In this document: positions 7,418 through 27,142 of the stretch, piece after piece
How the letters are laid out: every line of letters begins with the position of its first letter
Numbering within the stretch: the first letter of the stretch is position 1
Notes under the pieces: model-generated
What the model was told of the DNA's origin: nothing
What the model saw: the letters and a program-made list of their open reading frames with translations, nothing else
Database searches by the model: none
From: a bacterium
GTDB taxonomy: Bacteria; Patescibacteriota; Patescibacteriia; UBA1558; UBA10009
DNA length: 64,000 nucleotides
NCBI GenBank assembly: GCA_018672055.1
Contig: JABHGM010000001.1
Span: 72,884-136,883, forward strand
Direction of reading: 5' to 3'
Made by a program: the position numbers and the translations under genes

Positions 7418-7458
7418 GCTATCTATGAGTTAGCTATAAGAAAAAAGAAATAGTTTAA

Positions 7459-8580: not shown

Positions 8581-8652
8581 ATAGTACTATTATACATTAA
8601 AATATAAAATAGTCAAGACTATTATATATTACACTATAAAATAGTCTAAATA

Positions 8653-9390
8653 TTACTTCAATCTCTCTATTTCATCATTTAAAAACATTAAAGTTTCTTT
8701 TTTTATAACTAAGCGTAATTTTTTAAACTTATCATATTGTATTAAATGATTTATATCTTGATCAATAATTGTCTGAGTTATTTCTTTTTTAATAAATACT
8801 ACTAATTCTATTAAAAAATCAATTACTTTCTTCTGCCTTCTTTCCTTAATTACCTCGCTATTATAATCAAAACCATTAAAAAAGAAATGATGGATATCAT
8901 AAAGATCTCTGCCTGCTATCGATTTATTTTTTTCATATCTTTCTATTAAAGCTACTAACTTGTTAGCAAACATAGTTTCAATAGTTTGAGTTGTAATAAT
9001 ACGATCAATTTCTTTAAACCGTATAGTTTCATATTTATTACTCTTAGGAGCAGGGTAAGTAATATCAATTTTTAAAGTATTTCTTGCCCCTATCTTAGAC
9101 GGGTATCTTAAAAAATATTGAGGCACACTTAAACTCTTGTCCTTAATCTCTAAGCCAAGTTTTTTAAATATCTTTTCTAATTTTTTACTAGTTTCTTTTA
9201 TCTCAGTTTTTTTTCCAAGATAATCAAAGTCAAGATCAATCGAAAAACGATCTAAAAAACCACGCATAGCAGCTGAAGTACCCCCTTTAAAACATAATAC
9301 ACTAGCTAAATAAGGATCATTATAGATAGTGCTTAATAATCTATATAGCCAAGCTTTATGCTTAGCATCCTGTTTTTTTGGTAATATCAT
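8653..9390 (-). CDS. abiEii: AbiEii/AbiGii nucleotidyltransferase toxin (type IV TA system)
   Basis: N-terminal CFKGGTSAAMRGFLDRFSIDLDFDY matches the DUF1814/AbiEii signature. Lies directly downstream of an AbiEi-like gene. Confidence 0.7.
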   Translation of the reverse strand: MILPKKQDAKHKAWLYRLLSTIYNDPYLASVLCFKGGTSAAMRGFLDRFSIDLDFDYLGKKTEIKETSKKLEKIFKKLGLEIKDKSLSVPQYFLRYPSKIGARNTLKIDITYPAPKSNKYETIRFKEIDRIITTQTIETMFANKLVALIERYEKNKSIAGRDLYDIHHFFFNGFDYNSEVIKERRQKKVIDFLIELVVFIKKEITQTIIDQDINHLIQYDKFKKLRLVIKKETLMFLNDEIERLK

Positions 9391-9393
9391 ATT

Positions 9394-9954
9394 TTATTTA
9401 TAACCTATTATTTTTTGTAATTTTTTAACTTTATTCCAATTAATTAACCTATCAGCATCAAAATGATACTTTGGATTAAAATATAATAAATCAGCCACAG
9501 CTCTCTCTAAAGTAGCTAGCCTAATTCCATCTTTTTCAATAATACCTGCATCATTATATAGATAATCATCTTTAAGCTGTCTAACAATGTAATTATTATC
9601 TACAATAGTAAATCTTTTTGATGATGAAGAAATTAAAGTAATATAATCTGTCTTTTGGTTAATAATGCCTAAATCAAATAAAATTGACTCTGCACTAACA
9701 TATGAATATTTGTGTAAAGCCTTAATACCTAATAAGTAAGGGTTAACTTGAGAAATAGGTTTAATAGAATAAAAACCTCTATGGACTCTAAATAATAACC
9801 CTTTTTGGGTATAACGCTTTAAAGTAGTATATAACGTGTTTAAGTTAGTAATTCCCCATAGATTAGCTAAATCATTGAAATAAAAAACTACCTCATTCAA
9901 ACTAACTAACTGAGAAAATCTCTTAAGGGCTGTGTTATATTTTACTGTACTCAT
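9394..9954 (-). CDS. abiEi: AbiEi antitoxin / transcriptional regulator (type IV TA system)
   Basis: 186 aa with a winged-helix-like N-terminus. Encoded immediately upstream (3-nt gap) of the AbiEii toxin gene, the canonical AbiE operon order. Confidence 0.55.
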   Translation of the reverse strand: MSTVKYNTALKRFSQLVSLNEVVFYFNDLANLWGITNLNTLYTTLKRYTQKGLLFRVHRGFYSIKPISQVNPYLLGIKALHKYSYVSAESILFDLGIINQKTDYITLISSSSKRFTIVDNNYIVRQLKDDYLYNDAGIIEKDGIRLATLERAVADLLYFNPKYHFDADRLINWNKVKKLQKIIGYK

Positions 9955-12224: not shown

Positions 12225-12461
12225 ATGTATGAGATAAATGATAATCAAACGCCATGGTGGGGGACTGAAAGGAGATGGAAAAATTGGTGGAGTAATTATC
12301 CTTGGATAATAATTTTTCCTATAGGTATTATATTAATGCTTATTCCTAATCCGATAAGTCTCTATATTGGAGCACACTTAGTTGGTTACACATTAATGAT
12401 ACTCGTAGGTATAGGTATAGCAATTTTAATATTTGCATTAATATGGAGAGTAAATAAATGA
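12225..12461 (+). CDS. Small Trp-rich two-TM membrane protein, hypothetical
   Basis: Strong SD (AAAGGAGA, 7-nt spacer), own promoter and downstream terminator. Two predicted hydrophobic helices. Confidence 0.5.
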   Translation: MYEINDNQTPWWGTERRWKNWWSNYPWIIIFPIGIILMLIPNPISLYIGAHLVGYTLMILVGIGIAILIFALIWRVNK

Positions 12462-12478
12462 CGACCCAAACATTAAAA

Positions 12479-12510
12479 CAGCCGGTTATTCAATGAATAA
12501 CCGGCTTTAA
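12479..12510. terminator. Bidirectional rho-independent terminator between convergent genes
   Basis: CAGCCGGTTATTCA-atgaataACCGGCTT; a perfect GC-containing stem flanked by A/T runs. Confidence 0.65.
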
Positions 12511-12528
12511 CTTTATATTAATTTTATT

Positions 12529-13797
12529 TTATTTCAAAACTAATTTTCCTTCTTCAGCTACTATATCTCTCCAATAAAAGTTATTATCTTTCAAATCAGC
12601 AAAAGTCAGCGATAAATATTTTTCTTCATTATGTTTTTTTAAAATATTTGCTAAATGAATCATGATTATGACACTATCATGATTTTTTAATGAAAAATTC
12701 TTATCAAATAACATCTTCAAAAACTGTCCATGCAATATAATACGTTGATCTTTATTAGATAAACTTAATGTGTCTAAACCTGCAAATCCTTTAATGAATT
12801 CTACTTGCCAAGTATTAAATATAGAAACCTTTTCAAGTAAACTAAATTTACTATTTTCTATTAAATTAAATAATAAATTCATTACTAATTTTATATCTTT
12901 TTCACTTATTGCCCTATCAAGTCTATTTATAATTTCTGAATCATCAAATATTGTTTTTGACTCGATATTAGCGAAATATTCACTTATTATTTTATTATAT
13001 GAATCTAAAAATTCATTTTTATTTTTTTCTTTATCTAAATCTTTACCAAATTCATCTTGTAATTCTGTTGTCTCTTCATCATCACTTACCTCATTAACAT
13101 CAAATATATATGGCTGCTTATAATAATTCCCATAATTTTCAGGGTTAGCAAATATATTAAACAGCTTTATAATTCTTTTTAAAGTTGTTTGATCTTCACT
13201 ATTAAGCTTCTTCACATCTTCATTATTTGATATATAACCTGATAATCCTAAACCATTCATTCGACTAGGCCTACCTTCCGTAAAAATTATATAATCATTA
13301 ACCCAATCTTTTATTAATGGAACAGATCTTCCTTTATTAACAGAATAAGAAACATTTTCAGATCCAAGCTTCTCTTCATTTTCCCTTATAGATCCAGTAA
13401 AAGCAGAAATATTAATATAAAAATCTTCTTTAAGCCATCTGGTATAACTAACAAGTAAAGTTAAAATTGGTAATTTATTCTTAAATATAAAAAGTAAATT
13501 ATCTTTTAGTATGTTCTTTATTTGATCTAAACTAAAATTAATTATGGATAATACTTCTAATTTTTTTAGTTCTACATGATACTTGTTATATAAATTTAAA
13601 TTTTGTTTCTTCAACTTACTATCATTTTTATCAAAAACTTCTTTCAATAATTTATATAATAAATAACTATCACCTGGCTCAAGAGAAATAATAAAATCAT
13701 CAACAAATGTTTTTATAAATTTTAAGTTATTGCTGTCTAAAAAATCAGTAATTTGCCAACTATCTATTTTAAGTTCTTCCATTCTTGATCCACTCAT
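12529..13797 (-). CDS. Hypothetical protein, last gene of the giant-protein operon
   Basis: 422-aa ORF with no recognisable motifs. 3-nt gap to the upstream 1084-aa gene. Confidence 0.5.
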   Translation of the reverse strand: MSGSRMEELKIDSWQITDFLDSNNLKFIKTFVDDFIISLEPGDSYLLYKLLKEVFDKNDSKLKKQNLNLYNKYHVELKKLEVLSIINFSLDQIKNILKDNLLFIFKNKLPILTLLVSYTRWLKEDFYINISAFTGSIRENEEKLGSENVSYSVNKGRSVPLIKDWVNDYIIFTEGRPSRMNGLGLSGYISNNEDVKKLNSEDQTTLKRIIKLFNIFANPENYGNYYKQPYIFDVNEVSDDEETTELQDEFGKDLDKEKNKNEFLDSYNKIISEYFANIESKTIFDDSEIINRLDRAISEKDIKLVMNLLFNLIENSKFSLLEKVSIFNTWQVEFIKGFAGLDTLSLSNKDQRIILHGQFLKMLFDKNFSLKNHDSVIIMIHLANILKKHNEEKYLSLTFADLKDNNFYWRDIVAEEGKLVLK

Positions 13798-13800
13798 ATT

Positions 13801-16800
13801 TTATTTTCTTTTATCATTAATAAATTCATCTATTGCCATTTTACCTGTATTGTTATCTTTAATTTTATCCTTAATATCATTTAAGCTATTTGTTAAATCC
13901 CCCATTAGAAAATTCATTACAGATCTATTTTCTCTAAATTGCTTTTTAATTTGTCTTTTTAGTATTTCAATAAATTCTAATCTGGCCATAGAACTTGCTC
14001 TCCAATCTTTTCCCTTCAATTGACCAATTTCGACCATAGAACTTTCTAAAACTAAACCTATAGAACCATTAACAAGCTGCTCTTTATTATTATTTTTAAC
14101 ACCTTTTTTAATATCTGTAACCTTCTGTTTACCAAAATCATCTAAAGTCATAGCAACTTTATCTAAACCATTAATTACATCTTGTATTGACTGGTTAACA
14201 TTGGCAGATTTTTCACCCTTCTCACCCTTCTCAGATTTTTCACCCTTCTCACCCTTCTCGCCCTTCTCAGATTTTTCACCCTTCTTACCCTTCTCAGATT
14301 TTTCACCCTTCTTACCATCTTTAGCCTTCTTACCCTTCTTAGGACTTCTTATTTCATCTTCCAAATCTTCTTCGCCAGGACCTCCATTAATATACATTCT
14401 ATGTTTTTCATAGCCATAATTTTTAACTGATTTTGCAATTTTATCACCAACTATAAATCTACTCTCACTGCCATCTTCAGAATCTACTTTTTCTACATCA
14501 TATACTGCCCCATTTGCAGCATTAATAGCTATCATTTTTCCCGTTATCTTAGACTTGCCGTCCTTATCTCTTATAAATTTACCATCTTTATCTTTTTCTT
14601 TTTCATCAAATTTAACAATCATAAAACCTGTTTTTGATCCTTGTCTTACTTCAATAGCAGCACCCTTAGCATAGTTTCTGTTAGCCTCTGAATTATCAGA
14701 TACAAATTGGGCGCCTGATTTATCATATGAAGCTATACCATTACGCATACTAGCATCTAAGACACTTAAAAATACTCTTAAATCGCTAACAGACTTATAA
14801 TCATGAGCTTTAGTATGTTCAGATTCGTCTTTGCTGAGTGGTGCTCCAAGAGCGCTACCACCAACATTAGTATTACCTGTTCTTGATTTTGTAGCACTAG
14901 CAACCTTATATATTTCATTACTATTACCAGACAATTCATGCATCCTTCTATATGATTCATCAATATCACAACTAGCATTAGTACCATCTCCCATTCTGGC
15001 ACTATACATATGAGCCTGACCTCTTTCTGGACCATCACGCTTAGAAGCTTCAGTTAAACGTTCTCTGGCTACTTCAGTTAATCCATTTTTATCTTTTATA
15101 GTATAATCTAATAACCTCTGTTTACCAGTTTCTGGGTCTGCCCTTACCCAGCCAACATCTTCCCAATGACCATTCGCCCATGCTGGCTCCTCTAAATCAT
15201 ACACAACATCCTTTCCAGCATCAGATTCATCTCCATTATGATCCATAATGATATATTCTTTGAAAAACTTACCCTTCTTTTTAGGTGGCTCTATCTCTAC
15301 ATGGCCATAAATTAATCTTTGTTCTGCTCCTGTGAGAACTTTATTTAATTTATCAAATTCCTTATCTTTTTCCTCTTTTGATAATCCTTTCCATTTTTGT
15401 TCCTTATCCGTTTCATTATATAAATCCTCTTCTCTTTTTTCATCATAGGCAATAGAAGCATTAGAAATTTCTACTTCTAAGTCCTCACCTTTAAAACCTT
15501 CATCTTCTTTTTTTTGCTTAATATCTTTAAGATAATAATATTTTTTTTCTTCTTCAGAACCCTTCTCCATTAAATCTTCCATTATCCTAGGTATGGACAT
15601 TAAATCATCAATCCAAGATTCTTTAGAAGCGTAAGCAAATAGTCCACGAATTACTCTATCTTTTTCGGTGCTAGGTTTCATATCTAATGCTAAATCAAAT
15701 TTAGCCATAACATCTTGCAAACCAGAGACATTCATATCCTCAACTTTAGTTTTTGCTATTCTTGATTCTGCAGTTGTTGCATGAGAAGTTTGTAATTTTC
15801 CACCAGTCATAATTTTATTATAAAAATCATAAGCTTGTGCTGAAGCAACTTGTCTTGATTCATCAAGCAAAACATCGCCACGCTTAGCGAGCCCTTCCCA
15901 ACCAGGTTTAGTCAAAAGCATTAAACTCTTTCTAAAAATACCTGCACCTTCGGCCGTTGCCGAATCCAATACCTTCCTTTCTACATACTTACCGCTTCTT
16001 TTAGCGACAGTTTTTGCCAAGAATCCTGCTCCCTTAAATGATGCTGTAATTGGAGCTAGACCTGCCTTTATAGATCCCTTGCCTATGTCTGATAACTTAG
16101 TTCCTATTTTCCCAGCTATAGTCCCAGCTGCTCCACTCGCTTTTTGACTAAACATTAAAGCCATCCATAATAGAGCTATTGAAACGATAAAAGTAAAAAG
16201 TTTTGGCGTTTCACTTATTGCTGAAACAGTAACTGAAAATTTTTCTTCACTTCCTTCTTTATATTCTATATCCTGCCCACTAACTTCTCCGTATTTAATA
16301 ACATTAGGATCATTAGAAAATTGATTTAATATTGCGCTATCACTTGTTATTGAAAGACTTAATATGGAAAGAGAAAGCCACATAAAAAAAGCTAAAACAA
16401 TACCAATAGTTATTTCTTTAAAAAAATGACCCCAGAATTCAGACCAATATTTTTGTAAATTTGGAAAAGTGTATGCAATAAAAGCAATTGGAGAGATTAT
16501 TACTAAAATCCATAATGTTAATATTCTAAATAAAAGTACTACGAAAAATGCAGCTATAGTAAAACAAGCCACGATTAATAATATTAAACCTAATAAAAGT
16601 CCGCCAAATGCTTCAAAACTTTCACCATCATCATTAACAGTCATACTCAAAATATGTTCAAGCCCAAACGCACTATTTAAATTAATTAAAAGAGCTCCTT
16701 TAAACCCATTTACAAAAGTAAGCATAACTACCTGACTAACATCAATTAAAAAACCAAGAATTGTTTTAGAAAAATTAATTAAAATAGCCATGATAATCAA

Positions 16801-17055
16801 CTTAAATAAAGTTGTCTTATAATGGTATACAGATATTTTTAAAATTGTACCAAAAGCAATAATTAATAATATTACTACCACCGTCATATTACAAACATCC
16901 CTAACTAATGGCCAACCTATTTGCACTGCTTCTGAACTTAAAAAATTATTGTATTGAAAAATAACAACCAATCGCTCCATAAACCAAGCAAGAAGTGTGG
17001 CAGTGAGACTGATAATCTCCATCAAAAGCCAATTTATCATGTTGAAAAAATCCAT
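13801..17055 (-). CDS. Large polytopic membrane protein (N-terminal ~7 TM, large hydrophilic C-terminal region with (GEKSEK)n repeat)
   Basis: N-terminal 330 aa are dominated by hydrophobic helices. Gly/Ala-rich linker. C-terminal KGEKSEKGKKGEKSEKGEKGEKGEKSEKGEKGEKS low-complexity tract. Immediately downstream of the giant secreted protein gene. Confidence 0.6.
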   Translation of the reverse strand: MDFFNMINWLLMEIISLTATLLAWFMERLVVIFQYNNFLSSEAVQIGWPLVRDVCNMTVVVILLIIAFGTILKISVYHYKTTLFKLIIMAILINFSKTILGFLIDVSQVVMLTFVNGFKGALLINLNSAFGLEHILSMTVNDDGESFEAFGGLLLGLILLIVACFTIAAFFVVLLFRILTLWILVIISPIAFIAYTFPNLQKYWSEFWGHFFKEITIGIVLAFFMWLSLSILSLSITSDSAILNQFSNDPNVIKYGEVSGQDIEYKEGSEEKFSVTVSAISETPKLFTFIVSIALLWMALMFSQKASGAAGTIAGKIGTKLSDIGKGSIKAGLAPITASFKGAGFLAKTVAKRSGKYVERKVLDSATAEGAGIFRKSLMLLTKPGWEGLAKRGDVLLDESRQVASAQAYDFYNKIMTGGKLQTSHATTAESRIAKTKVEDMNVSGLQDVMAKFDLALDMKPSTEKDRVIRGLFAYASKESWIDDLMSIPRIMEDLMEKGSEEEKKYYYLKDIKQKKEDEGFKGEDLEVEISNASIAYDEKREEDLYNETDKEQKWKGLSKEEKDKEFDKLNKVLTGAEQRLIYGHVEIEPPKKKGKFFKEYIIMDHNGDESDAGKDVVYDLEEPAWANGHWEDVGWVRADPETGKQRLLDYTIKDKNGLTEVARERLTEASKRDGPERGQAHMYSARMGDGTNASCDIDESYRRMHELSGNSNEIYKVASATKSRTGNTNVGGSALGAPLSKDESEHTKAHDYKSVSDLRVFLSVLDASMRNGIASYDKSGAQFVSDNSEANRNYAKGAAIEVRQGSKTGFMIVKFDEKEKDKDGKFIRDKDGKSKITGKMIAINAANGAVYDVEKVDSEDGSESRFIVGDKIAKSVKNYGYEKHRMYINGGPGEEDLEDEIRSPKKGKKAKDGKKGEKSEKGKKGEKSEKGEKGEKGEKSEKGEKGEKSANVNQSIQDVINGLDKVAMTLDDFGKQKVTDIKKGVKNNNKEQLVNGSIGLVLESSMVEIGQLKGKDWRASSMARLEFIEILKRQIKKQFRENRSVMNFLMGDLTNSLNDIKDKIKDNNTGKMAIDEFINDKRK
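14205..14345. repeat. Coding 9/18-nt tandem repeat (cacccttct / cagattttt units) encoding a (GEK/SEK)n tract
   Basis: Direct visual periodicity of ttcacccttctcagattttt units inside the 13801..17055 CDS. Confidence 0.7.
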
Positions 17056-17061
17056 ATATTA

Positions 17062-20000
17062 TTATCTAGGAATAATTTGTATTTGACCATTAAACTGAGG
17101 TGATGAACCTAAATCACATCTTTCATTACCGTAAATTCCACTACTACACCATCCCCAATGATCTTTAACTGAAATGGTTGGTCCAGAATAATAGCAAATA
17201 CCATCATCTGCATCAATCCAATTTTCTATGTTAGTATCCCAACATTTACTACATCTGTCCCCTTCAGTATTAGTTACACAACTATATACATGTTTAACTT
17301 TATGAGGACTGCTTTCTTGAGGTCTATTATTAATTGGACCTGAAAAACTTTGAATATCACTTGGACTTGGACCATCATTCCATTTAATTAATATTTCTTC
17401 TATAGGTAATTGATCTGGATTACCCATTATAGTATTAAAGCTAAGATTAACTGCTCCCCCTGGTGCAGTAAGTGTTATAACACCACTACTATCATTTAAT
17501 TCAATATTTGTAACTTGAGGAGCCACTCCTTCTTCCTCAACAACAGAAATCTTCCCATCAGCATCATCAAAATCATCTGTTACATCTTCATAATGTCCAT
17601 CTTCCCATTTATATACTCCATATACTTCAGCAAATAAATTTAATACCCTGTCTCTTAAAACATCTGCTAATTCTAAAGGCTCTCCAAGACAAACTGGATA
17701 AAGTGTTTGATTTAAACAATCTTGATTACCATTAGCTATATCACATGATGTATTATTAGTATTTCCATCTGCATTTGTACATAGAAAGCTGGATGTATCA
17801 GTCAGGTTACCACATGTTACATAATCTAGTTCTCCATCTTCAGTACATATATCATTATCTGCATTATCTTCACTATCAGCACACTCTGTATATTCAGTTT
17901 CACCGCTTGCATTTAAACAATATAAAACACCATTATTAGAGGATTGAATTTCACTACAAGTATTATACTCTTGAACTTGAGGACAATCTAAATCTGTAGC
18001 ACATATCTGATTATTAGTAACGCCAGAAGTTGAATCTGTATAACACATTCTATTTGTTGCTAGTATTGGTTTACGACAAGTTGGATATTTTGAATCAAAA
18101 CATTCTATACTAGCATTACAGGCTTGACCATTTGAAATATTAGCTGAGTTATAGCAATAATCTCCAACGCCAATACATATACCACTTAAATCAGCACCTG
18201 AATCATCTTCACATTCACTGCTATTAATACAAGTATTGCCTTCATTAAATCCGCCTAAGCATTCCCTATTTGAAACTGAATGTCCAGTATAAGTTGAAAA
18301 TGGTAAACCGCCTCTTGCAAAAATTTCTGGCTCATATGAACCATTAGGTATATTTGAATTAGAACCACTATGAATATTCAAAGGAACTGCTGGATTATCA
18401 ATGGAATTCCAACTATATGGATCACCTGCTGAAGGTTCAGAGACACTACCATATAAGTATGAATCTTCAACCATATTAGATTTCATATAACCCATTTCAT
18501 TTCCTTCATCAAAATCCCAGTTATTATTATATCTTGTAAACCAAGCTTTCTCTTTTTGACCACTCTCACTTGTATCTTTTACAGTTTTAACTAAATAACT
18601 ACATGATTCTTTCAAATGGAATATTAGTTGATATCCCCAAGTATCTTGATTATTACCATCGCCATCATCATCGTGACCATAATGTTCTATTTCTTCTATA
18701 TTTCCATTAATATCAAACTTGACTTTAACGCCTACCCTTTCTTCTCCTGAGCTATCACATGAACCATCTTCATTGTTCCATTTATCTGGATCTGTTTCAA
18801 CGCTATTTCTACAATATGCAAAGAATAGAGAATTATCATCAGACCATTCTAATAAGGTAAATGTTTCACCCGGATTTGGGAATTGCTTATCACCACCATT
18901 AGATATGGTTCTAGCTTCAATCTTATGAATATCTGATCGTTTTATATTCCATATTTCTTGATTATCACCATCTGTATAGAATGAAGTATAATCTTCCCCA
19001 GGGTAATACCACTCGTGTTCTTCATTTGAAACCTCAATATACTCAGTGCTCCATTCAAAACCATCATAACCACACTGCATATTACTTCCCCAGTTCCAAC
19101 ACTGATTACCATTATATATAGTCTCTTTGTAATGACTTGTACTTTCTAAACAGTAATAAAGAGGCATAGGACCAGTATAGTAGCTAGTAGCACTATCACC
19201 TAAAGATATTAATGATTCCCCAGATATATTATCTACTGGGTACCATTGTATACATGCTTCCTGGTTATTTGGATCATACTCTAAACAATAGCCATGCCAT
19301 CCATTATATTGCTTTAGATCGCTATAATTACAGCTAGGAGCATTATCAGTTGGATATAGTCTACAATCTTTAGTTAATAACTTATCATCAGAAACAAATA
19401 ATCCAGGTTCTATACTAAATTTATCAAACCAAACTAATCCAGTACCACCTGATTCTTCTGTTGTTGGTGCATCAATAGTAATACGAGCAGCCACAGCTCC
19501 GTCAGGAATAATTATTTCAGAATTTGATTCAGAAGGTTCATAAGAAATTAAGAATCTCTGCCAATTAACATTAGGTGTAAATATTTCTAAAGAATTAGAT
19601 AACTCATCACCAGATCCATCAAGCCAAGTAAGTCCAACCTTAATCTTTTGACTACCATTACTAGATTTTGCATAAAAACTTAAATTATATTGCATATTTG
19701 GATCAATACTAATCTGACTTTGATTTACAACTGAACAATTAAAATTACCATCTTCACCAACAACTGATTGTGATAAATCTACACTCAAACTATATGTACC
19801 ATCATAAACATTTAAATTATTATTTTCTATTCCATAATTACAATATTCTTCTTCACCAAACTGCCAACTTGATAATCCAGAAACTGAATCAATTAACTCA
19901 AAACTACTATTTGAAATAGCAACCGATCTACCTGTTTCTAACATTAATTCAGGTGGATAATAACCAGCTATAACCTTGTCAGTATTCCAAATTAAACCAG

Positions 20001-23000
20001 CTTTAGAATACCCTGATAAATTACGTATTCTTTCAACACCTTCAGGATTACCATTTAGATCTAAAAAGTTATATGTTTGTTCTGAATAATCTATACTGGT
20101 TTCTAATTTCAGGCAGTTATCCGGATTATTTGGATCAATCTTTGAACATCTGCCAATATCTAAACAAACCGACGTTGTAACTCCAAATTCATCTTGAACT
20201 TCTATCGAAGAAGTACAGAATAAAGTTTCAGAACATTCTCTGTCTTTAGCAACTTGAATAACTGTATTTGAATTACAATATGCTGAGTCAGAAAAATTAG
20301 TTAAACAACTTTCAGGAACTGTAGGCACATTACCATCTAAAGTTTGTTTAGAGCTATGAGAAATACTAGCTACACTTGTATCATTAAATGGTACACATCC
20401 AGATCCTCTGTCTACAATACCATCGTCGCAATATTCTACTGTATTTGCTTTAGTATAGTATGCTTGGCAAGCAATTGAATAAGTACAGCTACTAGAACCA
20501 GCCGGAGCATAACAAACAGTACTATCTTCTACTTTACAATATTCACCTTCAGTATTTGATATATCATCATCTAAGAAGCAAGTCCAATCATTTTCAGTAT
20601 AAGGGCATGGAATAATACCAAAATCATCACCTGGTAAATCTATAGCTTCGCAAACAAAATGATCAACTCCATTAATATTCTTTTGACAGTAAGTTTTCCC
20701 ATTTAAAGTAATATATTCTTCACTAGCTTCATCCCCACAAACACCCTTCATTTGAGGTGAAATTAAAGCATCACATTGCTGAACGCCATCAATATAAGGA
20801 TTCTCTGGATCTCTGTATTCAGTACAAGAAGAAGCGTAACTTTCACATGTGCCAACCCAACCTTCATAGCCTTCTTGATCAGAGCTTGGCATAAATTTAG
20901 ATGAGCTACATAAATCACCGGAAGAATTAAGCCATTTAGCTTGATTTAAATTATAGGTACAAGTTCTGTCAAAACCATCTTCACTTAAAGCTATTGGATC
21001 GAAATAATAATTCTGACCAGTAAAGTCTCCATTAAACTCTGTACAATAAAGAGCGCTCTCGCTACAAAGCTGTCTTGGATATTCATCAGGATCATTAATT
21101 AAATAAGAAGTATTAAAATCAGTAATATAATTTTCTAAATATGTTTCATAATCACCACCACTATAGTATTCGTTCTGTCTGTCTAAAACAGGTACCCCAA
21201 CCAAAGAGCAACCTTTTTCTGAACACTCTTTACTTGGATCATTAACGATGTATACGATTTCATCATTTTTAACTGTTATATTTTCATAACTACATGAAAA
21301 TTCTCCATCTTGAATTATACATTTCTCAACACCTCTTATACTACAAACATTATCTTCAACAATACCAACAGAACTATTACATAAAGCAGTAAAGACTTCT
21401 TCTTTTTGTTGTGAAGAGTTATGTGTATCTATAAATGCTTCACAACTAATATTATTCGGAGAACAAATATAGTCAAAAGATTTTAAATAATGTATCTCGT
21501 TGTCCCTGTCAGTATATTCTTGGCAATTAAGCTGAGTTCCAACAGTTGGTAAGTCACATATTGCTGGTGTATTCCAAGAATCTTTAACCATGAAAAATTT
21601 ATCACTATATTCTTCCAAAACAATTTCATCAATTACATAAGCCTCTCCTGAACCAATATTATTTATAGCAATACGTATAGTTGGATCTTGAATATTATTA
21701 TTTATTTGTATTGGACCTACTCTATATTCCTGCCAGTTAGAACCTATATCATTGAGTTCAAAATTAACATAATTGGAATAATCAGTATTGTCTACTATAT
21801 ATTTTTGCGAATCAAAAGGAATGCTCATAGCCCAGAAAGTAAGTTCATATTGTTTATTTTCAGAAAAGTTAATTCCATTCAATGTCTTAATTATTGAATT
21901 ATTATCAGTAGCAACAAATAATGAATGCTCACCTACATAAACAGTAGTATTTACATTTGAAAGTCCTTGATTACTATTATCAGTATTATTAAAATCTCCA
22001 ATTGAACCATCTTCAAAGCCATCTTCAAAAACATTAAATATATTATTACCACCACCACCTTTATATTCCTTACATTGATTAGCTAGAGCTGGACAACTTA
22101 CACCTTCAAATGGATCAGCATTAAATATCTGACCTGTTGAAGTTCTTCTATATGGATGACACTCTGAAGAAGCAGTAATAACATATCTTTGATCAATATA
22201 ATATGGATCACCTGAAGAAGTAATAAACTCACGGCAATTTAAATTACCTTCAGGACATGAACTTGACCAGGCTTCAATAGTTTCAGCTGTATCATCGCAA
22301 GTTTGATCAAAATTATTAGAATCATCTGATAAGTTTAAATGTGTACAAGGAGCGCCTGCGAATACACCTCCTGTAATATTATTATTTAACAACTGCCATT
22401 TCTTTAATTGAAAACCTGTAGTATCTGAACCTTCCCAAGTAAAATATGAGCTTATATTAGGACTTGCTTCAGATACACATTGTCTTAAGTATGAAAAATA
22501 TTCTAAACCTTCACCACCACTTGAAACCTCATCTAAATTAGTAAATTGTTCACAACCAACATGCTGGGCACTACATGATTTACCAGTTGATGGTATAAAA
22601 TTTTGAAATGATGACTCAAAAGTAGCATCTTCGATCTCTTCAAAATAAGTACCTAGTTCTAAAAAGTTTTCATAACCAACACATTGATTACTACAAATAT
22701 CTCCACTTGATAATTTTGCTGGAACCTCACTACCACCTAAAACCGGTGTATAGCCTTCACAACCAACGTCTGCTTGAGAACAATAATTTACATACTGGTC
22801 ACATTCAGGATTATCTGAGCTACAATCTAAATATTCAGGTTGCACTTTTAGACGGGTTGATGAATGAGCAGTAGTATCACTATATGCTGGAATATATTGA
22901 TCTGAATCAATACTATAACCTTCTGTATTATCCTCTACAATAGGTGATCTGAGTATTACTAATTGTATATCATCTAACTTAGTATTAGATGACGAACCTG

Positions 23001-25467
23001 AATTTAAACTAAAATCTAATTTAATAAACTTTGATGAAACAGCTAAGCTATTATTTGTTGCTGAGCCAATTTCATATTCTTTAGTAGTAAAATCATCTGA
23101 TACAGTAATAGCACCTGATGATAAATCAGTTGAACCATTAGATGAGCCTGGTTGACCACTAGCTAAAGCTACATATTCAGTTATTGATAAAGTAGATGTA
23201 ACTTCTTGATCTGACTTTATCTTGTAACTTACATGATATGCATATTCTGAACTAACTGGTATATAACCAGAATTAAATAATTGACAACTAGCGCCAGATA
23301 TATTCATCTGACCAGCTTCAACATTAAATAGACATTGATTGCCTGTTTCCCAGCCTGAAGATATACCAAAAGCGAAATTACCATTTTCAACTAAATTAAT
23401 ACCTGGCTTTAAAAGAATTAATTCCCGACAACCAGCATTACTTGGTGAGCATTGAGAAGCTTGATTATTTAAATATATACGATCAGTTTTTGACCACTCA
23501 TCTGCTACTTTATTTGTAGAATACCAAGAACATCCGGCCTCGCTCTGATCACATTCAAGTAAAGTATCCCTTAAATATGAAACACTTGTGTTAGTAGTAA
23601 CATTAGTAAAAGTTTCACATGAGTTATAATAATCTTCACATGATTCACCTTCAAATCTCCAAACTGATTTTTCTTCTACACAATAACCATAATTTTTACA
23701 GCTACCATCATCATTGTATGAAATACAACTCTTCCAATCACCACAATAATCCCCAGCTCTTATTACAGTTCTAACTGGAATATCAGGAAATTCTGCACCA
23801 GCATCACAATACGGAGTTTCGATTGGAGAATTATCTATATTAGTACCTACTACATTATTTTCTGAACACTGTATTTCATCTTGATATAGCTCAGTGCCAA
23901 AACCTTGTTTTTCACAATAAGTTTTAGGTGATTTCAAAACCCAATTTGGATCAACTAAATGATAGAATGGATTAAAATCAAAAACAAAAGATTCATCTAA
24001 ATCACCCTCTTCAAATAATCTATCTTCTGTATTAGGCCTCTGCCCATTACTATTTGTATCTTCTCTACAATCTTTTGGATAATGAGCATCATTAGGGTGT
24101 AGCGGATCTTCAAAACAATCAATTAAATAACTTAAATTAATAGTGTCTTTCTCACCGTACCTAGAATTGTACATAGCTGCTAATTCCCAACCAACAGGTA
24201 TTATTCTATGAGTTCTAAGGATTACTAAACTCCTGTATGGCAAACCTTCTCTATAGCTTGGCTGAGTTGTTTTATCACTATTAAAACCAAAGACAGCATC
24301 TTTGTTAATATCACCATCATTTATTGCTTGAATTAATGTCTTATTACCTCTAATTGCTCCAGCCATGCCATTAGTAATTACCTCAGCTGTAGGTCCTGCT
24401 ATATCTGTTATCTTAGGTAAAACTAATTTATCAATAACACTTACCTCACCAGATGTAAAACTTACTTCAGCTAATTCACCAAATTGTTTTTGTCCTCCAC
24501 CGCTATACCTACCCCCAGATCTAACTATAAAATTAGCAAAAGAAGTAACTCTGCTACCACTATCAAAACCTTTCTTAAATAGAGTATCCATCCACTTAGA
24601 CATTAAAGTGTTAGTGAAAGTTGATAAGAAAGCATCAACAATTTCACCAGTATAAGTAAGTTCTACTTCGCCTGTTTTTTCATCAACAGATCTAAAATGA
24701 TTACCTAGTAATACAGCAGGTGTTTTAATAGTTCTAGTTATAGGAGAAGTAATATCTTTTAAACCTTGATTAACAGTTCGTTCTAAAGCAGCATTAACTC
24801 TAGCTTCTTCTTGCTCTTCCAAAATATTTGTTTGTAAAGTTAAATAAATACCTAAATCATTTTGTTCTGGTTGAAACTGCGCTTTAATACCTGAAGTGAA
24901 TTGACTTGGATCTTCACCAACATCTCTAATCCATTGATCCCAATTATCCTTAATCTCTGACCATTTACATCGTGCTTTCGGTATATTAGTTCCTTCACCA
25001 GTTGTGGAACCAGGTCCCAATTCTCTAAATAATGAATAGTGAATATTAAATTTAACAGTAGGTCCTTGTAATCCTGCTGGATTACAAACATCAAAATCAG
25101 TCCAATCCTGAGTTAGCTCATCCATAAATGTGCCAAGAGCAGCATCACCAGCTGCACTGGTAGCATCTTGAAAATTCTTGCCTTCAAATAGAGGTTCTTG
25201 TCCTCTACCACCAGTAGCAATGTATGTTGCAGTATCATAGGCAACCTGACTTAAAAATACTTTAGCACCTTGCTTAAAAGCAGTACCAATAGCTGATTCT
25301 TTAAACCATTCAGCAAATTTTTGGACACTTTCTACAGTTCTTTGAGCAAAAGCAGGAAAATCAGTTACAGCTTGAGCTCTTGGAACATTACTAAAAATAA
25401 AAACTCCTAAAAATAAGATTAAAACACTTAGGAGTATAAATTTTTGAAATAATGTTTTTTTCATCAT
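17062..25467 (-). CDS. Giant (2801 aa) secreted Cys-rich surface protein
   Basis: Signal peptide (MMKKTLFQKFILLSVLILFLGVFIFSNVPRAQA). ~480-aa Cys-poor N-terminal domain, then >2000 aa with frequent paired Cys and Asn/Ser/Thr/Gly-rich segments. Single uninterrupted ORF of 8.4 kb. Confidence 0.7.
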   Translation of the reverse strand: MMKKTLFQKFILLSVLILFLGVFIFSNVPRAQAVTDFPAFAQRTVESVQKFAEWFKESAIGTAFKQGAKVFLSQVAYDTATYIATGGRGQEPLFEGKNFQDATSAAGDAALGTFMDELTQDWTDFDVCNPAGLQGPTVKFNIHYSLFRELGPGSTTGEGTNIPKARCKWSEIKDNWDQWIRDVGEDPSQFTSGIKAQFQPEQNDLGIYLTLQTNILEEQEEARVNAALERTVNQGLKDITSPITRTIKTPAVLLGNHFRSVDEKTGEVELTYTGEIVDAFLSTFTNTLMSKWMDTLFKKGFDSGSRVTSFANFIVRSGGRYSGGGQKQFGELAEVSFTSGEVSVIDKLVLPKITDIAGPTAEVITNGMAGAIRGNKTLIQAINDGDINKDAVFGFNSDKTTQPSYREGLPYRSLVILRTHRIIPVGWELAAMYNSRYGEKDTINLSYLIDCFEDPLHPNDAHYPKDCREDTNSNGQRPNTEDRLFEEGDLDESFVFDFNPFYHLVDPNWVLKSPKTYCEKQGFGTELYQDEIQCSENNVVGTNIDNSPIETPYCDAGAEFPDIPVRTVIRAGDYCGDWKSCISYNDDGSCKNYGYCVEEKSVWRFEGESCEDYYNSCETFTNVTTNTSVSYLRDTLLECDQSEAGCSWYSTNKVADEWSKTDRIYLNNQASQCSPSNAGCRELILLKPGINLVENGNFAFGISSGWETGNQCLFNVEAGQMNISGASCQLFNSGYIPVSSEYAYHVSYKIKSDQEVTSTLSITEYVALASGQPGSSNGSTDLSSGAITVSDDFTTKEYEIGSATNNSLAVSSKFIKLDFSLNSGSSSNTKLDDIQLVILRSPIVEDNTEGYSIDSDQYIPAYSDTTAHSSTRLKVQPEYLDCSSDNPECDQYVNYCSQADVGCEGYTPVLGGSEVPAKLSSGDICSNQCVGYENFLELGTYFEEIEDATFESSFQNFIPSTGKSCSAQHVGCEQFTNLDEVSSGGEGLEYFSYLRQCVSEASPNISSYFTWEGSDTTGFQLKKWQLLNNNITGGVFAGAPCTHLNLSDDSNNFDQTCDDTAETIEAWSSSCPEGNLNCREFITSSGDPYYIDQRYVITASSECHPYRRTSTGQIFNADPFEGVSCPALANQCKEYKGGGGNNIFNVFEDGFEDGSIGDFNNTDNSNQGLSNVNTTVYVGEHSLFVATDNNSIIKTLNGINFSENKQYELTFWAMSIPFDSQKYIVDNTDYSNYVNFELNDIGSNWQEYRVGPIQINNNIQDPTIRIAINNIGSGEAYVIDEIVLEEYSDKFFMVKDSWNTPAICDLPTVGTQLNCQEYTDRDNEIHYLKSFDYICSPNNISCEAFIDTHNSSQQKEEVFTALCNSSVGIVEDNVCSIRGVEKCIIQDGEFSCSYENITVKNDEIVYIVNDPSKECSEKGCSLVGVPVLDRQNEYYSGGDYETYLENYITDFNTSYLINDPDEYPRQLCSESALYCTEFNGDFTGQNYYFDPIALSEDGFDRTCTYNLNQAKWLNSSGDLCSSSKFMPSSDQEGYEGWVGTCESYASSCTEYRDPENPYIDGVQQCDALISPQMKGVCGDEASEEYITLNGKTYCQKNINGVDHFVCEAIDLPGDDFGIIPCPYTENDWTCFLDDDISNTEGEYCKVEDSTVCYAPAGSSSCTYSIACQAYYTKANTVEYCDDGIVDRGSGCVPFNDTSVASISHSSKQTLDGNVPTVPESCLTNFSDSAYCNSNTVIQVAKDRECSETLFCTSSIEVQDEFGVTTSVCLDIGRCSKIDPNNPDNCLKLETSIDYSEQTYNFLDLNGNPEGVERIRNLSGYSKAGLIWNTDKVIAGYYPPELMLETGRSVAISNSSFELIDSVSGLSSWQFGEEEYCNYGIENNNLNVYDGTYSLSVDLSQSVVGEDGNFNCSVVNQSQISIDPNMQYNLSFYAKSSNGSQKIKVGLTWLDGSGDELSNSLEIFTPNVNWQRFLISYEPSESNSEIIIPDGAVAARITIDAPTTEESGGTGLVWFDKFSIEPGLFVSDDKLLTKDCRLYPTDNAPSCNYSDLKQYNGWHGYCLEYDPNNQEACIQWYPVDNISGESLISLGDSATSYYTGPMPLYYCLESTSHYKETIYNGNQCWNWGSNMQCGYDGFEWSTEYIEVSNEEHEWYYPGEDYTSFYTDGDNQEIWNIKRSDIHKIEARTISNGGDKQFPNPGETFTLLEWSDDNSLFFAYCRNSVETDPDKWNNEDGSCDSSGEERVGVKVKFDINGNIEEIEHYGHDDDGDGNNQDTWGYQLIFHLKESCSYLVKTVKDTSESGQKEKAWFTRYNNNWDFDEGNEMGYMKSNMVEDSYLYGSVSEPSAGDPYSWNSIDNPAVPLNIHSGSNSNIPNGSYEPEIFARGGLPFSTYTGHSVSNRECLGGFNEGNTCINSSECEDDSGADLSGICIGVGDYCYNSANISNGQACNASIECFDSKYPTCRKPILATNRMCYTDSTSGVTNNQICATDLDCPQVQEYNTCSEIQSSNNGVLYCLNASGETEYTECADSEDNADNDICTEDGELDYVTCGNLTDTSSFLCTNADGNTNNTSCDIANGNQDCLNQTLYPVCLGEPLELADVLRDRVLNLFAEVYGVYKWEDGHYEDVTDDFDDADGKISVVEEEGVAPQVTNIELNDSSGVITLTAPGGAVNLSFNTIMGNPDQLPIEEILIKWNDGPSPSDIQSFSGPINNRPQESSPHKVKHVYSCVTNTEGDRCSKCWDTNIENWIDADDGICYYSGPTISVKDHWGWCSSGIYGNERCDLGSSPQFNGQIQIIPR

Positions 25468-25468
25468 G

Positions 25469-26275
25469 TTATTGATTTAACAATGTTTGAGTTTCGCCTA
25501 AAGCTTCTTGCCAAATTAAAGTTAATTCTTCATCAGTTAATTGATTCACTTCCTCTGGATTAATACCTTGATCTATTAAAACCTGCTTTATTTCATCTGG
25601 ACTCAAATCCATACTATAACCAGAAATTAAGTTTGAAAACTGATCACCTTGATCAATACTACCAAGTGTTTGTTCAAAAGTTTCACGTAAAGTTCTGTCA
25701 TCAAGTGAAGCTACTTGTTCAGGTGACGCTCCTTGTTGAATGAGCAAAGCTCTAAGCTCTTCATTGGTTAAATTCGTTAAATCTTCAGATAAAGTTTCTT
25801 CTGAAGCAACCGGCGAACTACAAACAGCTCCTCTTGGACAATTTGGATCATAACCATTAGTAATTTCCTCAGAATCATTAAAACCATCGGAGTCAGTATC
25901 TTCTAAATAAGGTGATGTATTATATAAATAAAGCTCATCATAATCTGATAAACCATCAAAATCAGTATCTTGAACTTGCAGTTGAACTAAATCTTGAACA
26001 TCATCACTAACTTCACCAGTAACAGCAATTTTATCTGTATCATTAATTAAAAATGGCAGCTTTATACTATTTGCCCATTGCATGGCTGAAGCAACTACAG
26101 CTATGAGTGCAAAAACTGCCAGCAAAAGGAAGATTCCAACTGGTTTTTTTTCTTCTTTTTTTTCAATAATTTGAGGTTCTAAAAAAGAAATATCATCACT
26201 GTGCTTATCCTGATTTTCATCAAAATCTGCACGATAATTTTCTGTATTTTCGGGCATAAAATTAGTCAATTTCAT
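25469..26275 (-). CDS. Membrane-anchored protein with thrombospondin-type-3-like Ca-binding repeats
   Basis: Single TM (GIFLLLAVFALIAVVASAM). DTDFDGLSDYDE and DTDSDGFNDSEE DxDxDG motifs. 1-nt gap to the giant gene. Confidence 0.55.
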   Translation of the reverse strand: MKLTNFMPENTENYRADFDENQDKHSDDISFLEPQIIEKKEEKKPVGIFLLLAVFALIAVVASAMQWANSIKLPFLINDTDKIAVTGEVSDDVQDLVQLQVQDTDFDGLSDYDELYLYNTSPYLEDTDSDGFNDSEEITNGYDPNCPRGAVCSSPVASEETLSEDLTNLTNEELRALLIQQGASPEQVASLDDRTLRETFEQTLGSIDQGDQFSNLISGYSMDLSPDEIKQVLIDQGINPEEVNQLTDEELTLIWQEALGETQTLLNQ

Positions 26276-26296
26276 AACTAATTATATCAGAATTTG

Positions 26297-27142
26297 CTAC
26301 TTATCGTCAATAAATAACTCTTGATAACTTTTAGCTAATTTTAGCCAATCACCTATCTTTAAATCCTGAGCCCTAATTTTTTTACTGAGACATGATTTAT
26401 TAAAAATCTTACTAGTTAATTCATCACTTACATGTAAGCTATTCTTAATATTATTATGTAATTGTTTTCGTTTTGCACTAAAACCAGATTTAACAACTTG
26501 CCAAAAAACTTTCTCTGAAACTATATCTTCAAATTCATACTTTCTGATATTTTTTATATGTAAAATAGCCGAATCAATCTTAGGTACTGGATAAAAACTA
26601 TCTTTTTGTACAATTTCTTCTATTGTAGGATCGCCATAAAGTTGAATGGAAATAGCCAATAAACTCATACTTCCAGGTTTAGCTACTATTCTTTCAGCTA
26701 CTTCTTTTTGAATTAAAACAGTAATAGTAGTAGGTTTTAACTCTAAGTTCAAAAAGATTTTAAAAAATCTTGAAGTAATACTATATGGTAAATTAGCAAC
26801 TATCTTGTAATCAGTAGATTTTAAATCATTTAGATCAAGTTTTAAAATATCTTTATTTATTATCTCTAGATTATTATGAAGTTTAGCAAATTCATTCAAA
26901 GGTTTAATTAAATTAGTATCAAGTTCAACTGCTACAACTCTTTTTACTTTCTTAAGAAGCTCTAATGTTAGAAAGCCAAAACCAGGACCTGCTTCTAAAA
27001 CTAAATCATCTTTCTCTAACTGAGCCACTTCAACCATTCTATCTAAAACATTTTGATCAATACAAAAATTCTGTCCTTTTAATTTATTAGGTCTTACATG
27101 ATTTACTTTTAATAAGTAATCTAATTCATCGAGTAAACTCAT
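26297..27142 (-). CDS. rsmA: 16S rRNA (adenine1518/1519-N6)-dimethyltransferase
   Basis: GQNFCIDQNVLDRMV and EAGPGFGFLT motifs (KsgA family). Confidence 0.85.
   Translation of the reverse strand: MSLLDELDYLLKVNHVRPNKLKGQNFCIDQNVLDRMVEVAQLEKDDLVLEAGPGFGFLTLELLKKVKRVVAVELDTNLIKPLNEFAKLHNNLEIINKDILKLDLNDLKSTDYKIVANLPYSITSRFFKIFLNLELKPTTITVLIQKEVAERIVAKPGSMSLLAISIQLYGDPTIEEIVQKDSFYPVPKIDSAILHIKNIRKYEFEDIVSEKVFWQVVKSGFSAKRKQLHNNIKNSLHVSDELTSKIFNKSCLSKKIRAQDLKIGDWLKLAKSYQELFIDDK

Follow-up and report, generated by a model that had tools for sequence, protein, structure and literature searches.

The window analysed here is a stretch of 64,000 nt from contig JABHGM010000001.1 (assembly GCA_018672055.1) of a bacterium assigned to the Patescibacteria, or candidate phyla radiation (CPR). 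On its minus strand lies a cassette of four open reading frames (ORFs), which encode, in this order, a membrane protein with thrombospondin type 3 (TSP3) repeats, here termed T3, a giant protein of 2801 amino acids (aa), an extended VirB6-like membrane protein and a soluble protein, X. The genes are separated by gaps of 1, 6 and 3 nt, and the mechanical ORF list returns the same coordinates, from 26275 down to 12529, that had been given in an earlier note on this DNA. We interpret the cassette as a probable part of the Patescibacteria type IV secretion system (T4SS). Its features are:

12480-12506, both strands: terminator-like hairpin with a 12-bp stem (6 G-C pairs), common to the cassette and a convergent 78-aa ORF
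12529-13797, minus strand: X, 422 aa, soluble, of a family encoded directly after virB6
13801-17055, minus strand: extended VirB6/TrbL-like protein, 1084 aa, polytopic in its N-terminal domain and hydrophilic and K/E-rich over the C-terminal ~750 aa
14205-14351, minus strand: low-complexity GEK(S)EK tract in the VirB6-like protein, corresponding to a tandem repeat of 9/27/36 nt in the DNA
16066-17055, minus strand: residues 1-330 of the VirB6-like protein, its conserved polytopic domain, in which 24 positions are invariant among 68 sequences
17062-25467, minus strand: giant protein, 2801 aa, predicted to be Sec-exported, with 108 Cys and strongly acidic (426 D+E against 169 K+R)
17065-19170, minus strand: C-terminal region of the giant protein (residues 2100-2801), which is variable and aligns in 5-47% of homologues
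19408-19917, minus strand: J3, a CBM_4_9 module, residues 1851-2020 (Pfam E=1.4e-8, 35.7 bits, above the cut-off of 25.9)
21598-22032, minus strand: J2, CBM_4_9-like, residues 1146-1290 (Pfam E=9e-5, 23.3 bits, below the cut-off of 25.9; hhalign to J3 96.2%)
22948-23397, minus strand: J1, a CBM_4_9-like jelly-roll, residues 691-840 (hhalign to J3 97.4%, E=1.3e-11; no direct Pfam match)
24058-25368, minus strand: conserved, Cys-poor and mostly alpha-helical N-terminal head of the giant protein, residues 34-470
25369-25467, minus strand: N-terminal signal peptide (residues 1-33) of the giant protein, with AQA|V at its end; its hydrophobic segment (residues 10-28) is the sole one in the protein
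25469-26275, minus strand: T3, 268 aa, single-pass membrane protein with a transmembrane (TM) helix at residues 46-64
26281-26310, minus strand: sigma-70-like promoter candidate, TTGACG, 18 nt, TG-TATAAT (11 of 12 consensus positions, with the TG of an extended -10 box; pattern match only)

The window has a G+C content of about 30%, and an open frame of 8.4 kb in such DNA indicates that the giant ORF did not arise by chance. At the downstream end of the cassette, where a bidirectional terminator had been proposed (12479-12510), the hairpin is called on both strands, against 0.2 such calls expected in shuffled sequences. The promoter candidate is located within the 3' end of rsmA, directly 5' of the T3 gene. 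The 5' limit of the transcription unit is nevertheless uncertain, because rsmA ends 21 nt from the start of the T3 gene and is, like tsaC, a gene for a 397-aa membrane protein and leuS, encoded on the same strand as the cassette. The convergent ORF on the far side of the terminator (12226-12462, plus strand, 78 aa) has two hydrophobic segments, and small ORFs of 98 and 101 aa occupy its position in two relatives (L002 and L007, respectively).

The 1084-aa protein provides the connection to a known secretion machinery. Its N-terminal residues 1-304 contain about 6-8 TM helices (a hydropathy scan gives six segments between residues 14 and 304), which agrees, as does the (GEKSEK)n tract, with the earlier description of about seven N-terminal TM helices followed by such a tract. 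The AlphaFold2 (AF2) model of residues 1-420, with a mean predicted local distance difference test score (pLDDT) of 80.9, is a bundle of long helices. Compared by Foldseek with 350,542 PDB chains, it finds TrwI/VirB6 of the R388 T4SS at all of the first seven ranks, with E-values of 0.014-0.37, probabilities that reach 1.00 and target-normalised TM-scores that reach 0.45. The ranks that follow are taken by unrelated helical proteins with a probability of at most 0.16; weak as they are in E-value, the TrwI matches are strikingly specific. At least 357 homologues were found, all of them in Patescibacteria, and a scan of species-representative genomes recovered the VirB6-like gene family in at least 578 genomes. 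Among the 120 homologues listed, two carry a precomputed match to PF04610 (TrbL) and four to PF19590, and one bears the JGI name 'VirB6-like'; Pfam TrbL is likewise matched, with a best E of 1.1e-5, by three of 21 homologues that were scanned. Extended VirB6-like proteins form a very large family in CPR bacteria, of which the 1084-aa protein is a member. The comparison with VirB6/TrbL-like families that had been proposed for it proved the right one.

Extended VirB6 proteins, with a long hydrophilic C-terminus of this kind, are described in PMC12857230, and the same architecture is found in SEML1_0013 (1088 aa) of Southlakia epibionticum, which is annotated as TrbL/VirB6-like. The protein of the window resembles VirB6 in that its best and sole specific fold matches in PDB are to TrwI of R388 and in that its gene occurs together with those for VirB3 and VirB4, and differs from VirB6/TrbL in giving no Pfam TrbL score and in its K/E-rich, lineage-specific C-terminal 750 residues with their GEK repeat. 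K and R are abundant just behind the final TM helix, which makes it probable that this C-terminal region, in which no domain is recognised, is cytoplasmic. The GEK(S)EK repeat is the sole DNA tandem repeat of the cassette and is 9 aa shorter in the strain variant P0373. Matches of the protein to collagen, the Scl adhesin and tail fibres in Pfam, NCBIfam, PHROG and PDB all fall on this tract and were rejected as low-complexity artefacts.

The arrangement of the cassette was compared among related CPR genomes from either side. A VirB6-centred sample comprised 81 non-redundant loci, in which ORFs were called and labelled by phmmer, and a giant-centred sample comprised 69 non-redundant metagenome loci found through the head of the giant protein, of which 28 have a complete giant gene and at least 1.5 kb of downstream sequence. 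Of the VirB6-centred loci, 58 extend at least 9 kb upstream, and 52 of these have a giant homologue upstream of virB6 and on the same strand. The two genes are adjacent (<300 nt) in 22 of these 58, and in many loci the gaps within the giant-virB6 neighbourhood are a few nt. Conversely, a VirB6-like gene follows the giant gene at 3 to 2480 nt in 26 of the 28 giant-centred loci. The gene directly 5' of that for the giant protein belongs to the T3 family in 20 of the 21 genome loci that could be evaluated and in 39 of 57 metagenome loci, and the gene directly after virB6 encodes a member of the X/Y family (Y being a second protein of this neighbourhood) in 66 of 67 loci. In 38 of 50 loci, the 7-10 kb of sequence that could be examined downstream include VirB4. 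In the related loci L004 and L006, one or more giant CBM_4_9 proteins are followed, with further genes in between, by a VirB6-like protein, a protein of about 450 aa, PrgI, a TraC-like protein, a DUF87/AAA_10/P-loop_TraG protein and T4SS_pilin (PF18895) genes.

The usual order in these genomes is T3, giant, VirB6, X, Y, VirB3, TrsD, VirB4. This order is conserved in divergent CPR lineages, and the linkage holds whichever of the two genes is taken as the starting point. Giant and VirB6 remain neighbours even between lineages whose giant proteins share only 24-35% identity and whose flanking genes are otherwise different. An absence of the partners beside giant proteins of other genomes, which the earlier note had named as a reason to abandon its proposal, is not what these counts (52/58, 26/28 and 20/21) display. 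Variants of the order occur in two sub-lineages: in one (including L021, L026, L034, L052 and L067), three to four conserved genes (~410, 550 and 270-405 aa) are inserted between giant and virB6, and in the other (L023, L030, L039 and L058), three genes (~320, 418 and 384 aa) follow X. These additional genes carry no annotation and are components of the locus specific to their lineages. The gene two positions upstream of the giant gene is rsmA/ksgA (26297-27142, minus strand), giving the order rsmA, T3, giant, and it takes the same position in 27 of the 45 giant-centred metagenome loci with enough upstream sequence.

In the genome of the window the same components are present in two blocks. 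A six-frame search with hidden Markov models found none of Y, VirB3, TrsD, VirB4, p200 and pilin inside the window. Except for the pilin, whose expected position is beyond the end of the sequence, they were recovered past the window's left edge, on contig L087, which was reached through the leftmost complete ORF of the window and is the window's own contig (identical over the common 3214 nt). On the strand of the cassette, it encodes Y (E=1.6e-74), VirB3 (2.9e-60), TrsD (4.5e-106), VirB4 (1179 bits) and p200 (1.5e-37), and Pfam assigns PF12666 (PrgI), PF26593 (TraC-like) and DUF87/AAA_10/P-loop_TraG to its products. This block of Y, VirB3/PrgI, TrsD, VirB4 and p200 begins about 15.6 kb downstream of the cassette. 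Its location on the same contig and the same strand identifies the cassette as the front half of a split T4SS locus. Within the inserted ~15.6 kb are the S6-SSB-S18-EFP operon, which is convergent, the AbiEii/AAA_14/methyltransferase island and several successive PEP-utilizers genes. Among the neighbouring genes with annotation, which cover part of the window's ORFs and not the rest of the genome, neither a relaxase nor a coupling protein appeared. That the cassette is part of the Patescibacteria T4SS appears to us very probable.

The giant protein itself displays a constant overall architecture. The signal peptide with its AQA|V site, and the distribution of Cys, of which only 2 of 108 fall within the first 450 residues, bear out the division into signal peptide, Cys-poor head and Cys-rich body that had been drawn earlier. 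The protein has neither an LPXTG motif nor a C-terminal TM helix and ends ...FNGQIQIIPR. Invariant motifs of the head include AYDTAxxxxxGxxGQ and R-x2-R-I-x-P-V-x-W-E-x-A-A. The AF2 model of the head, built on an alignment of 19 sequences, is predicted helical (pLDDT 53.5); it has no Foldseek match in PDB (best E=0.93), although a model of this quality is too poor for the result to count as a true negative. A profile search of PDB sequences and a Pfam search with the head likewise gave no match. Among 1.84 billion representatives, clustered at 50% identity, the head profile matches 2348 clusters when E<=1e-3 is required and 1129 with E<=1e-30. The matched region invariably takes up about residues 50-500 in proteins of 2300-3800 aa. 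The homologues of the giant protein, of 2300-3600 aa, are all from Patescibacteria.

A carbohydrate-binding module (CBM) family is recognised in the body. The whole protein matches Pfam CBM_4_9 (PF02018) with 42.5 bits (cut-off 25.9), a tiled Pfam scan puts the matches at residues 1146-1250 and 1851-1981, and a Cys-free segment at about residues 691-840 is homologous to both J2 and J3 (hhalign 96-97%, E 1e-9 to 1e-11). As judged from sequence, these modules may bind glycan. They are embedded in a non-enzymatic Cys-rich scaffold, in which half of the Cys positions (54 of 108) recur in 80% or more of 30 homologues (24-55% overall identity) and C-x6-C pairs are enriched (13 observed against 4.0 expected). 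Compared with one another for an internal repeat structure, the Cys-rich spacers show only weak similarity (hhalign probability of at most 71%). Residues 50-2100 align in 70-100% of 119 homologues, and the variable C-terminal region is replaced in homologues by other modules, namely dockerin, PA14, LamG and VWA.

T3, which precedes the giant protein, was expected to be a TM protein with TSP3-like calcium-binding repeats, and both its TM helix and its match to Pfam TSP3_bac (PF18884; 26.2 bits, cut-off 25) support this. Two DxDxDGxxDxxE repeats start at residues 103 and 126 and together span residues 103-137, and the protein has a DPNCPxGxxC Cys pair that precedes a helical repeat; these features are conserved throughout the family. 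At about residues 160-268 (25469-25800, minus strand), a helical repeat of about 35 aa (LTxxELRxLLIxQG...) is present in two copies, ELRALLIQQGASPEQVASLDDRTLRETFEQTLG and EIKQVLIDQGINPEEVNQLTDEELTLIWQEALG. The family retains this repeat in one or two copies, for which Pfam gives merely weak LEM/HhH-like matches. For both T3 and the giant protein, profile cut-offs of a known family are thus passed, and the view of the earlier note that none of the four products has an assignable family is wrong for three of them: the VirB6/TrbL-like protein, the giant protein with CBM_4_9, and T3 with TSP3_bac.

The fourth protein, X, lacks TM helices, a signal peptide and Cys residues, in line with its previous description as a cytoplasmic protein of 422 aa. 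X has no match in Pfam, NCBIfam or PHROGs, nor has the profile of its family in PDB, and a word-indexed homologue search returned merely four close relatives. By jackhmmer, the X of the window recovers all 63 of 63 genes at the X position of related loci. A global homology of X and Y was rejected (hhalign probability 0.18); an N-terminal module of about 90 aa is common to Y and a subset of X.

We regard it as somewhat favoured that the cassette, as a whole, is the surface and membrane-channel half of a chromosomal T4SS of the Patescibacteria type, described earlier as phylogenetically MPF-FATA-like, with the giant protein docking the host. For the narrower claim that the giant protein is the host-contact element of this T4SS, the chances seem to us evenly balanced. 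Under this interpretation, T3 and the giant protein would be exported by Sec, and the helical head of the latter would dock either on T3 as its anchor or on the VirB6 platform, on the side that faces out of the cell. The disulfide-stapled body of about 2,000 residues with its three CBM_4_9-like modules would project from the cell surface, and the variable C-terminal ~700 residues would set the specificity for a host surface (glycan), by which the secretion channel or pilus would be docked onto the host cell. The VirB6 domain would form the membrane platform used by VirB3 and VirB4, while the VirB6 tail and X would act on the cytoplasmic side.

Several observations weigh against this interpretation. 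The fold assignment of the 1084-aa protein is affected by the weak E-values of the TrwI matches, none of which is at or below 0.001, by the lack of a Pfam TrbL match to this protein even at E<=1, and by the failure of its family profile to recover TrwI among PDB sequences. The loci sampled are the closest relatives of the query, mostly of ABY1-type lineages, and not a random sample of CPR bacteria, and in 12 of the 50 loci VirB4 was not seen within the 7-10 kb available. Gene neighbourhood is the only tie between the giant protein and the putative T4SS partners. Together with these 12 loci, the promoter-like site and terminator of the cassette itself and its distance of 15.6 kb from virB4 imply that the module could act alone. 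CBM-like jelly rolls can be purely structural, and the docking of the head on VirB6 is a conjecture because of the poor head model (pLDDT 53.5). Furthermore, no comparable giant Cys-rich protein is listed for the T4SS of Southlakia (SEML1_0006-0019), the sole experimentally studied T4SS of CPR bacteria.

Some of these points lead to a different explanation, namely that T3 and the giant protein form a general envelope or attachment structure, S-layer-like or a free-standing adhesin, which is located beside virB6 by inherited order and is independent of the T4SS. We consider this unlikely, if still deserving of weight. Extracellular proteins that are large and rich in Cys are common to CPR bacteria in general and have been reported without a link to a T4SS: a 14-gene cluster of Peregrinibacteria encodes such proteins, which average 1,655 aa and contain 7.2% Cys, and for which a role in attachment was proposed (PMC4736985). 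By description, the giant protein is similarly large, signal-peptide-bearing and Cys-rich. An independent structure would also agree with the transcription signals of the cassette and its separation from virB4, and the housekeeping gene rsmA, as conserved a neighbour as it is (27/45 loci), demonstrates that adjacency in these genomes does not always reflect shared function. Against inherited order speak a linkage that is seen in both directions (52/58 and 26/28) despite giant proteins of 24-35% identity and differing flanks, and gaps of a few nt in many loci. The giant family moreover keeps a single architecture of 2300-3800 aa with a highly conserved head, unlike fast-evolving generic adhesins. 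The original proposal of a dedicated giant-adhesin module is retained in so far as the cassette is conserved and combines an exported Cys-rich giant with a polytopic partner; it does not hold in the sense of a free-standing module, the rest of the T4SS locus being contiguous with it in 38 of 50 loci.

A more specific version of the preferred interpretation, that of a T4SS-bound giant protein, can be derived from VirB5. VirB5 is a stalk or pilus-tip protein of about 220 aa that is seated on the VirB6 pentamer. The head of the giant protein might be its CPR counterpart, assembling on VirB6 as a platform and ending up at the tip of a VirB2-like pilus, which we hold to be distinctly unlikely. The head resembles VirB5 (TrwJ/TraC) in being predicted as Sec-exported and mostly alpha-helical and in having its gene near virB6, and no other VirB5 candidate has been reported from CPR bacteria. 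It differs in showing no sequence or fold match to VirB5, the fold comparison being limited by the poor model, and the resemblance is conjectural. If true, the ~300-kDa body would be a device at the tip of the pilus or stalk that recognises the host envelope via its CBMs and variable C-terminus and bridges or breaches it. The giant protein would then be the missing host-contact part and a structural element of the conduit between symbiont and host, more than a simple adhesin.

It has also been suggested, in the earlier note, that the membrane partner could be a dedicated exporter or anchor of the giant protein. In this explanation the VirB6-like protein and X would be an export or anchoring device of the giant, working without VirB4. 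The compactness of the four-gene unit, the distance of 6 nt between giant and virB6 here (<300 nt in 22/58 loci) and the 12 of 50 loci without VirB4 in reach would all be expected from it. The giant protein, on the other hand, carries a Sec signal peptide of the classical kind as well as Cys pairs that are conserved, and with such a signal peptide the VirB6-like protein is not needed for export. The membrane protein has a VirB6 fold, and VirB3, TrsD and VirB4 follow in most loci as well as in this genome; VirB6 proteins are not known to act without VirB4. A private exporter is very unlikely.

Highly doubtful, too, is the idea of the giant protein as a secreted effector or enzyme scaffold directed at polysaccharide of the host envelope, for CBM-guided lysis or nutrient scavenging. 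The three CBM_4_9-like modules, the lack of a membrane or sortase anchor in the giant protein, the dockerin of some homologues, as found in polysaccharide-degrading complexes, and the T4SS-linked lysozymes that are essential in Southlakia could be read in this way. A Pfam scan down to E<=1 found no catalytic domain in any of ten tiles of the giant protein, though, and a conserved Cys-rich scaffold of about 2,000 residues without enzymatic character is atypical of enzymes, while the tight coupling to the membrane-anchored T3 (20/21 loci) suggests retention at the cell surface. Finally, an artefact of assembly or annotation, by collapsed repeats, frameshifts or fusion of several genes, was feared at first and can be discarded, as the giant ORF (17062-25467) contains neither tandem nor dispersed DNA repeats, an identical product of 2800/2801 aa is present on at least 75 contigs (independent NCBI, JGI, Logan and ENA assemblies), and more than 100 full-length homologues have one domain order in common.

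Of the known surface proteins of T4SS, PrgB of pCF10 offers the closest parallel to a giant protein acting in host contact. Like PrgB, the giant is a large surface protein with predicted Sec export, encoded upstream of and co-oriented with channel genes of a monoderm-type T4SS, and presumed to contact the target cell. Unlike PrgB, it has no LPXTG motif, shows no sequence or domain similarity in Pfam or NCBIfam, is about twice the size and is Cys-rich; furthermore, it is a single-copy core gene across the whole radiation, whereas PrgB is plasmid cargo. Lacking both LPXTG and a domain of the PrgB/antigen I/II type, the giant protein is an analogue of PrgB at most and not a member of its family.

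The T4SS of CPR bacteria is itself known. It is essential in Southlakia, is devoid of a relaxase and has pilin arrays (PMC10633639), its role in Patescibacteria has been termed 'completely unknown' (PMC11665869), and a survey of Patescibacteria T4SS stated that 'No adhesins, such as PrgB, were detected' (PMC12102498). The locus described here corresponds to these systems (PMC10633639, PMC12102498) in its chromosomal location, in a DUF87/AAA_10 VirB4 preceded by TrsD and PrgI/VirB3, in a VirB6 nearby and in the pilins of related loci. It departs from them in its division into two blocks 15.6 kb apart and in the giant Cys-rich CBM protein, the TSP3 anchor and X/Y, which are not among the described components. 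A giant, Cys-rich or CBM protein of the locus is not mentioned in PMC10633639, PMC11665869, PMC12102498 or the review PMC12857230, and the literature on CPR T4SS that was searched, which excluded most subscription journals, contains no giant or Cys-rich protein linked to such a system. We did not find a previous description of a TSP3 anchor, a giant CBM/Cys-rich protein and X beside VirB6.

The Patescibacteria T4SS is widespread and chromosomal, and the one species examined in this respect cannot grow epibiotically without it; in the giant protein there is now a concrete candidate for its host-facing part. The family of the giant protein, of ~1,100 to 2,300 clusters, is locked beside virB6 in many CPR lineages, along with a TSP3 anchor and a cytoplasmic partner. 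The distance of 15.6 kb between VirB6 and VirB4 in this genome means that surveys confined to the surroundings of virB4 may miss virB6 and its partners, and annotation of these genomes has to consider that T4SS loci can be split.

Several neighbouring genes deserve mention. Between the ribosomal-protein operon and the PEP-utilizers genes lies an island of the defence or mobile-element type (6248-9954, minus strand), with a 186-aa ORF that has no Pfam match, AbiEii (PF08843), AAA_14/DUF4143 and an N6_N4 DNA methyltransferase. It is followed by four successive ORFs of 500, 513, 479 and 978 aa with PEP-utilizers (PF00391) as their only domain; together with the ORFs that come after them, they take up 1775-6251 of the window (minus strand) and 11437-16337 of L087. 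Thereafter come an opposite-strand ORF of 119 aa (L087 14463-14822) with no Pfam match and, directly upstream of Y, a 323-aa ORF with PPDK_N only, which precedes Y in L002 as well. The run of PEP-utilizers and PPDK_N genes looks like a fragmented or multiplied PPDK-like gene set beside the T4SS. In a relative with the same split layout (L002/L003, 15210-15569, minus strand), the ribosomal-protein operon beside the cassette includes a bAvd/23S_rRNA_IVP-type gene of 119 aa. Genes of this type are often accessories of diversity-generating retroelements.

On the other side of the cassette, at 7-12 kb, two ATPases of a type IV pilus are encoded on the minus strand, one PilT-like (T2SSE; 33050-34084) and one PilB-like (T2SSE and MshEN; 38019-39707), and a protein with LysM and Peptidase_M23 domains is encoded at 31627-32712 on the plus strand. 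At E<=1e-3, Pfam matches neither an ORF of 761 aa (59461-61746, plus strand) nor one of 329 aa (39785-40774, minus strand). A class I aminoacyl-tRNA synthetase of 1026 aa (34891-37971, plus strand; tRNA-synt_1, Anticodon_1 and Val_tRNA-synt_C) also carries a His_Phos_1 domain at residues 435-592 (E=2.4e-31). As the tRNA-synt_1 match falls into two stretches, the best at residues 17-437, the His_Phos_1 domain is apparently inserted in the synthetase core.

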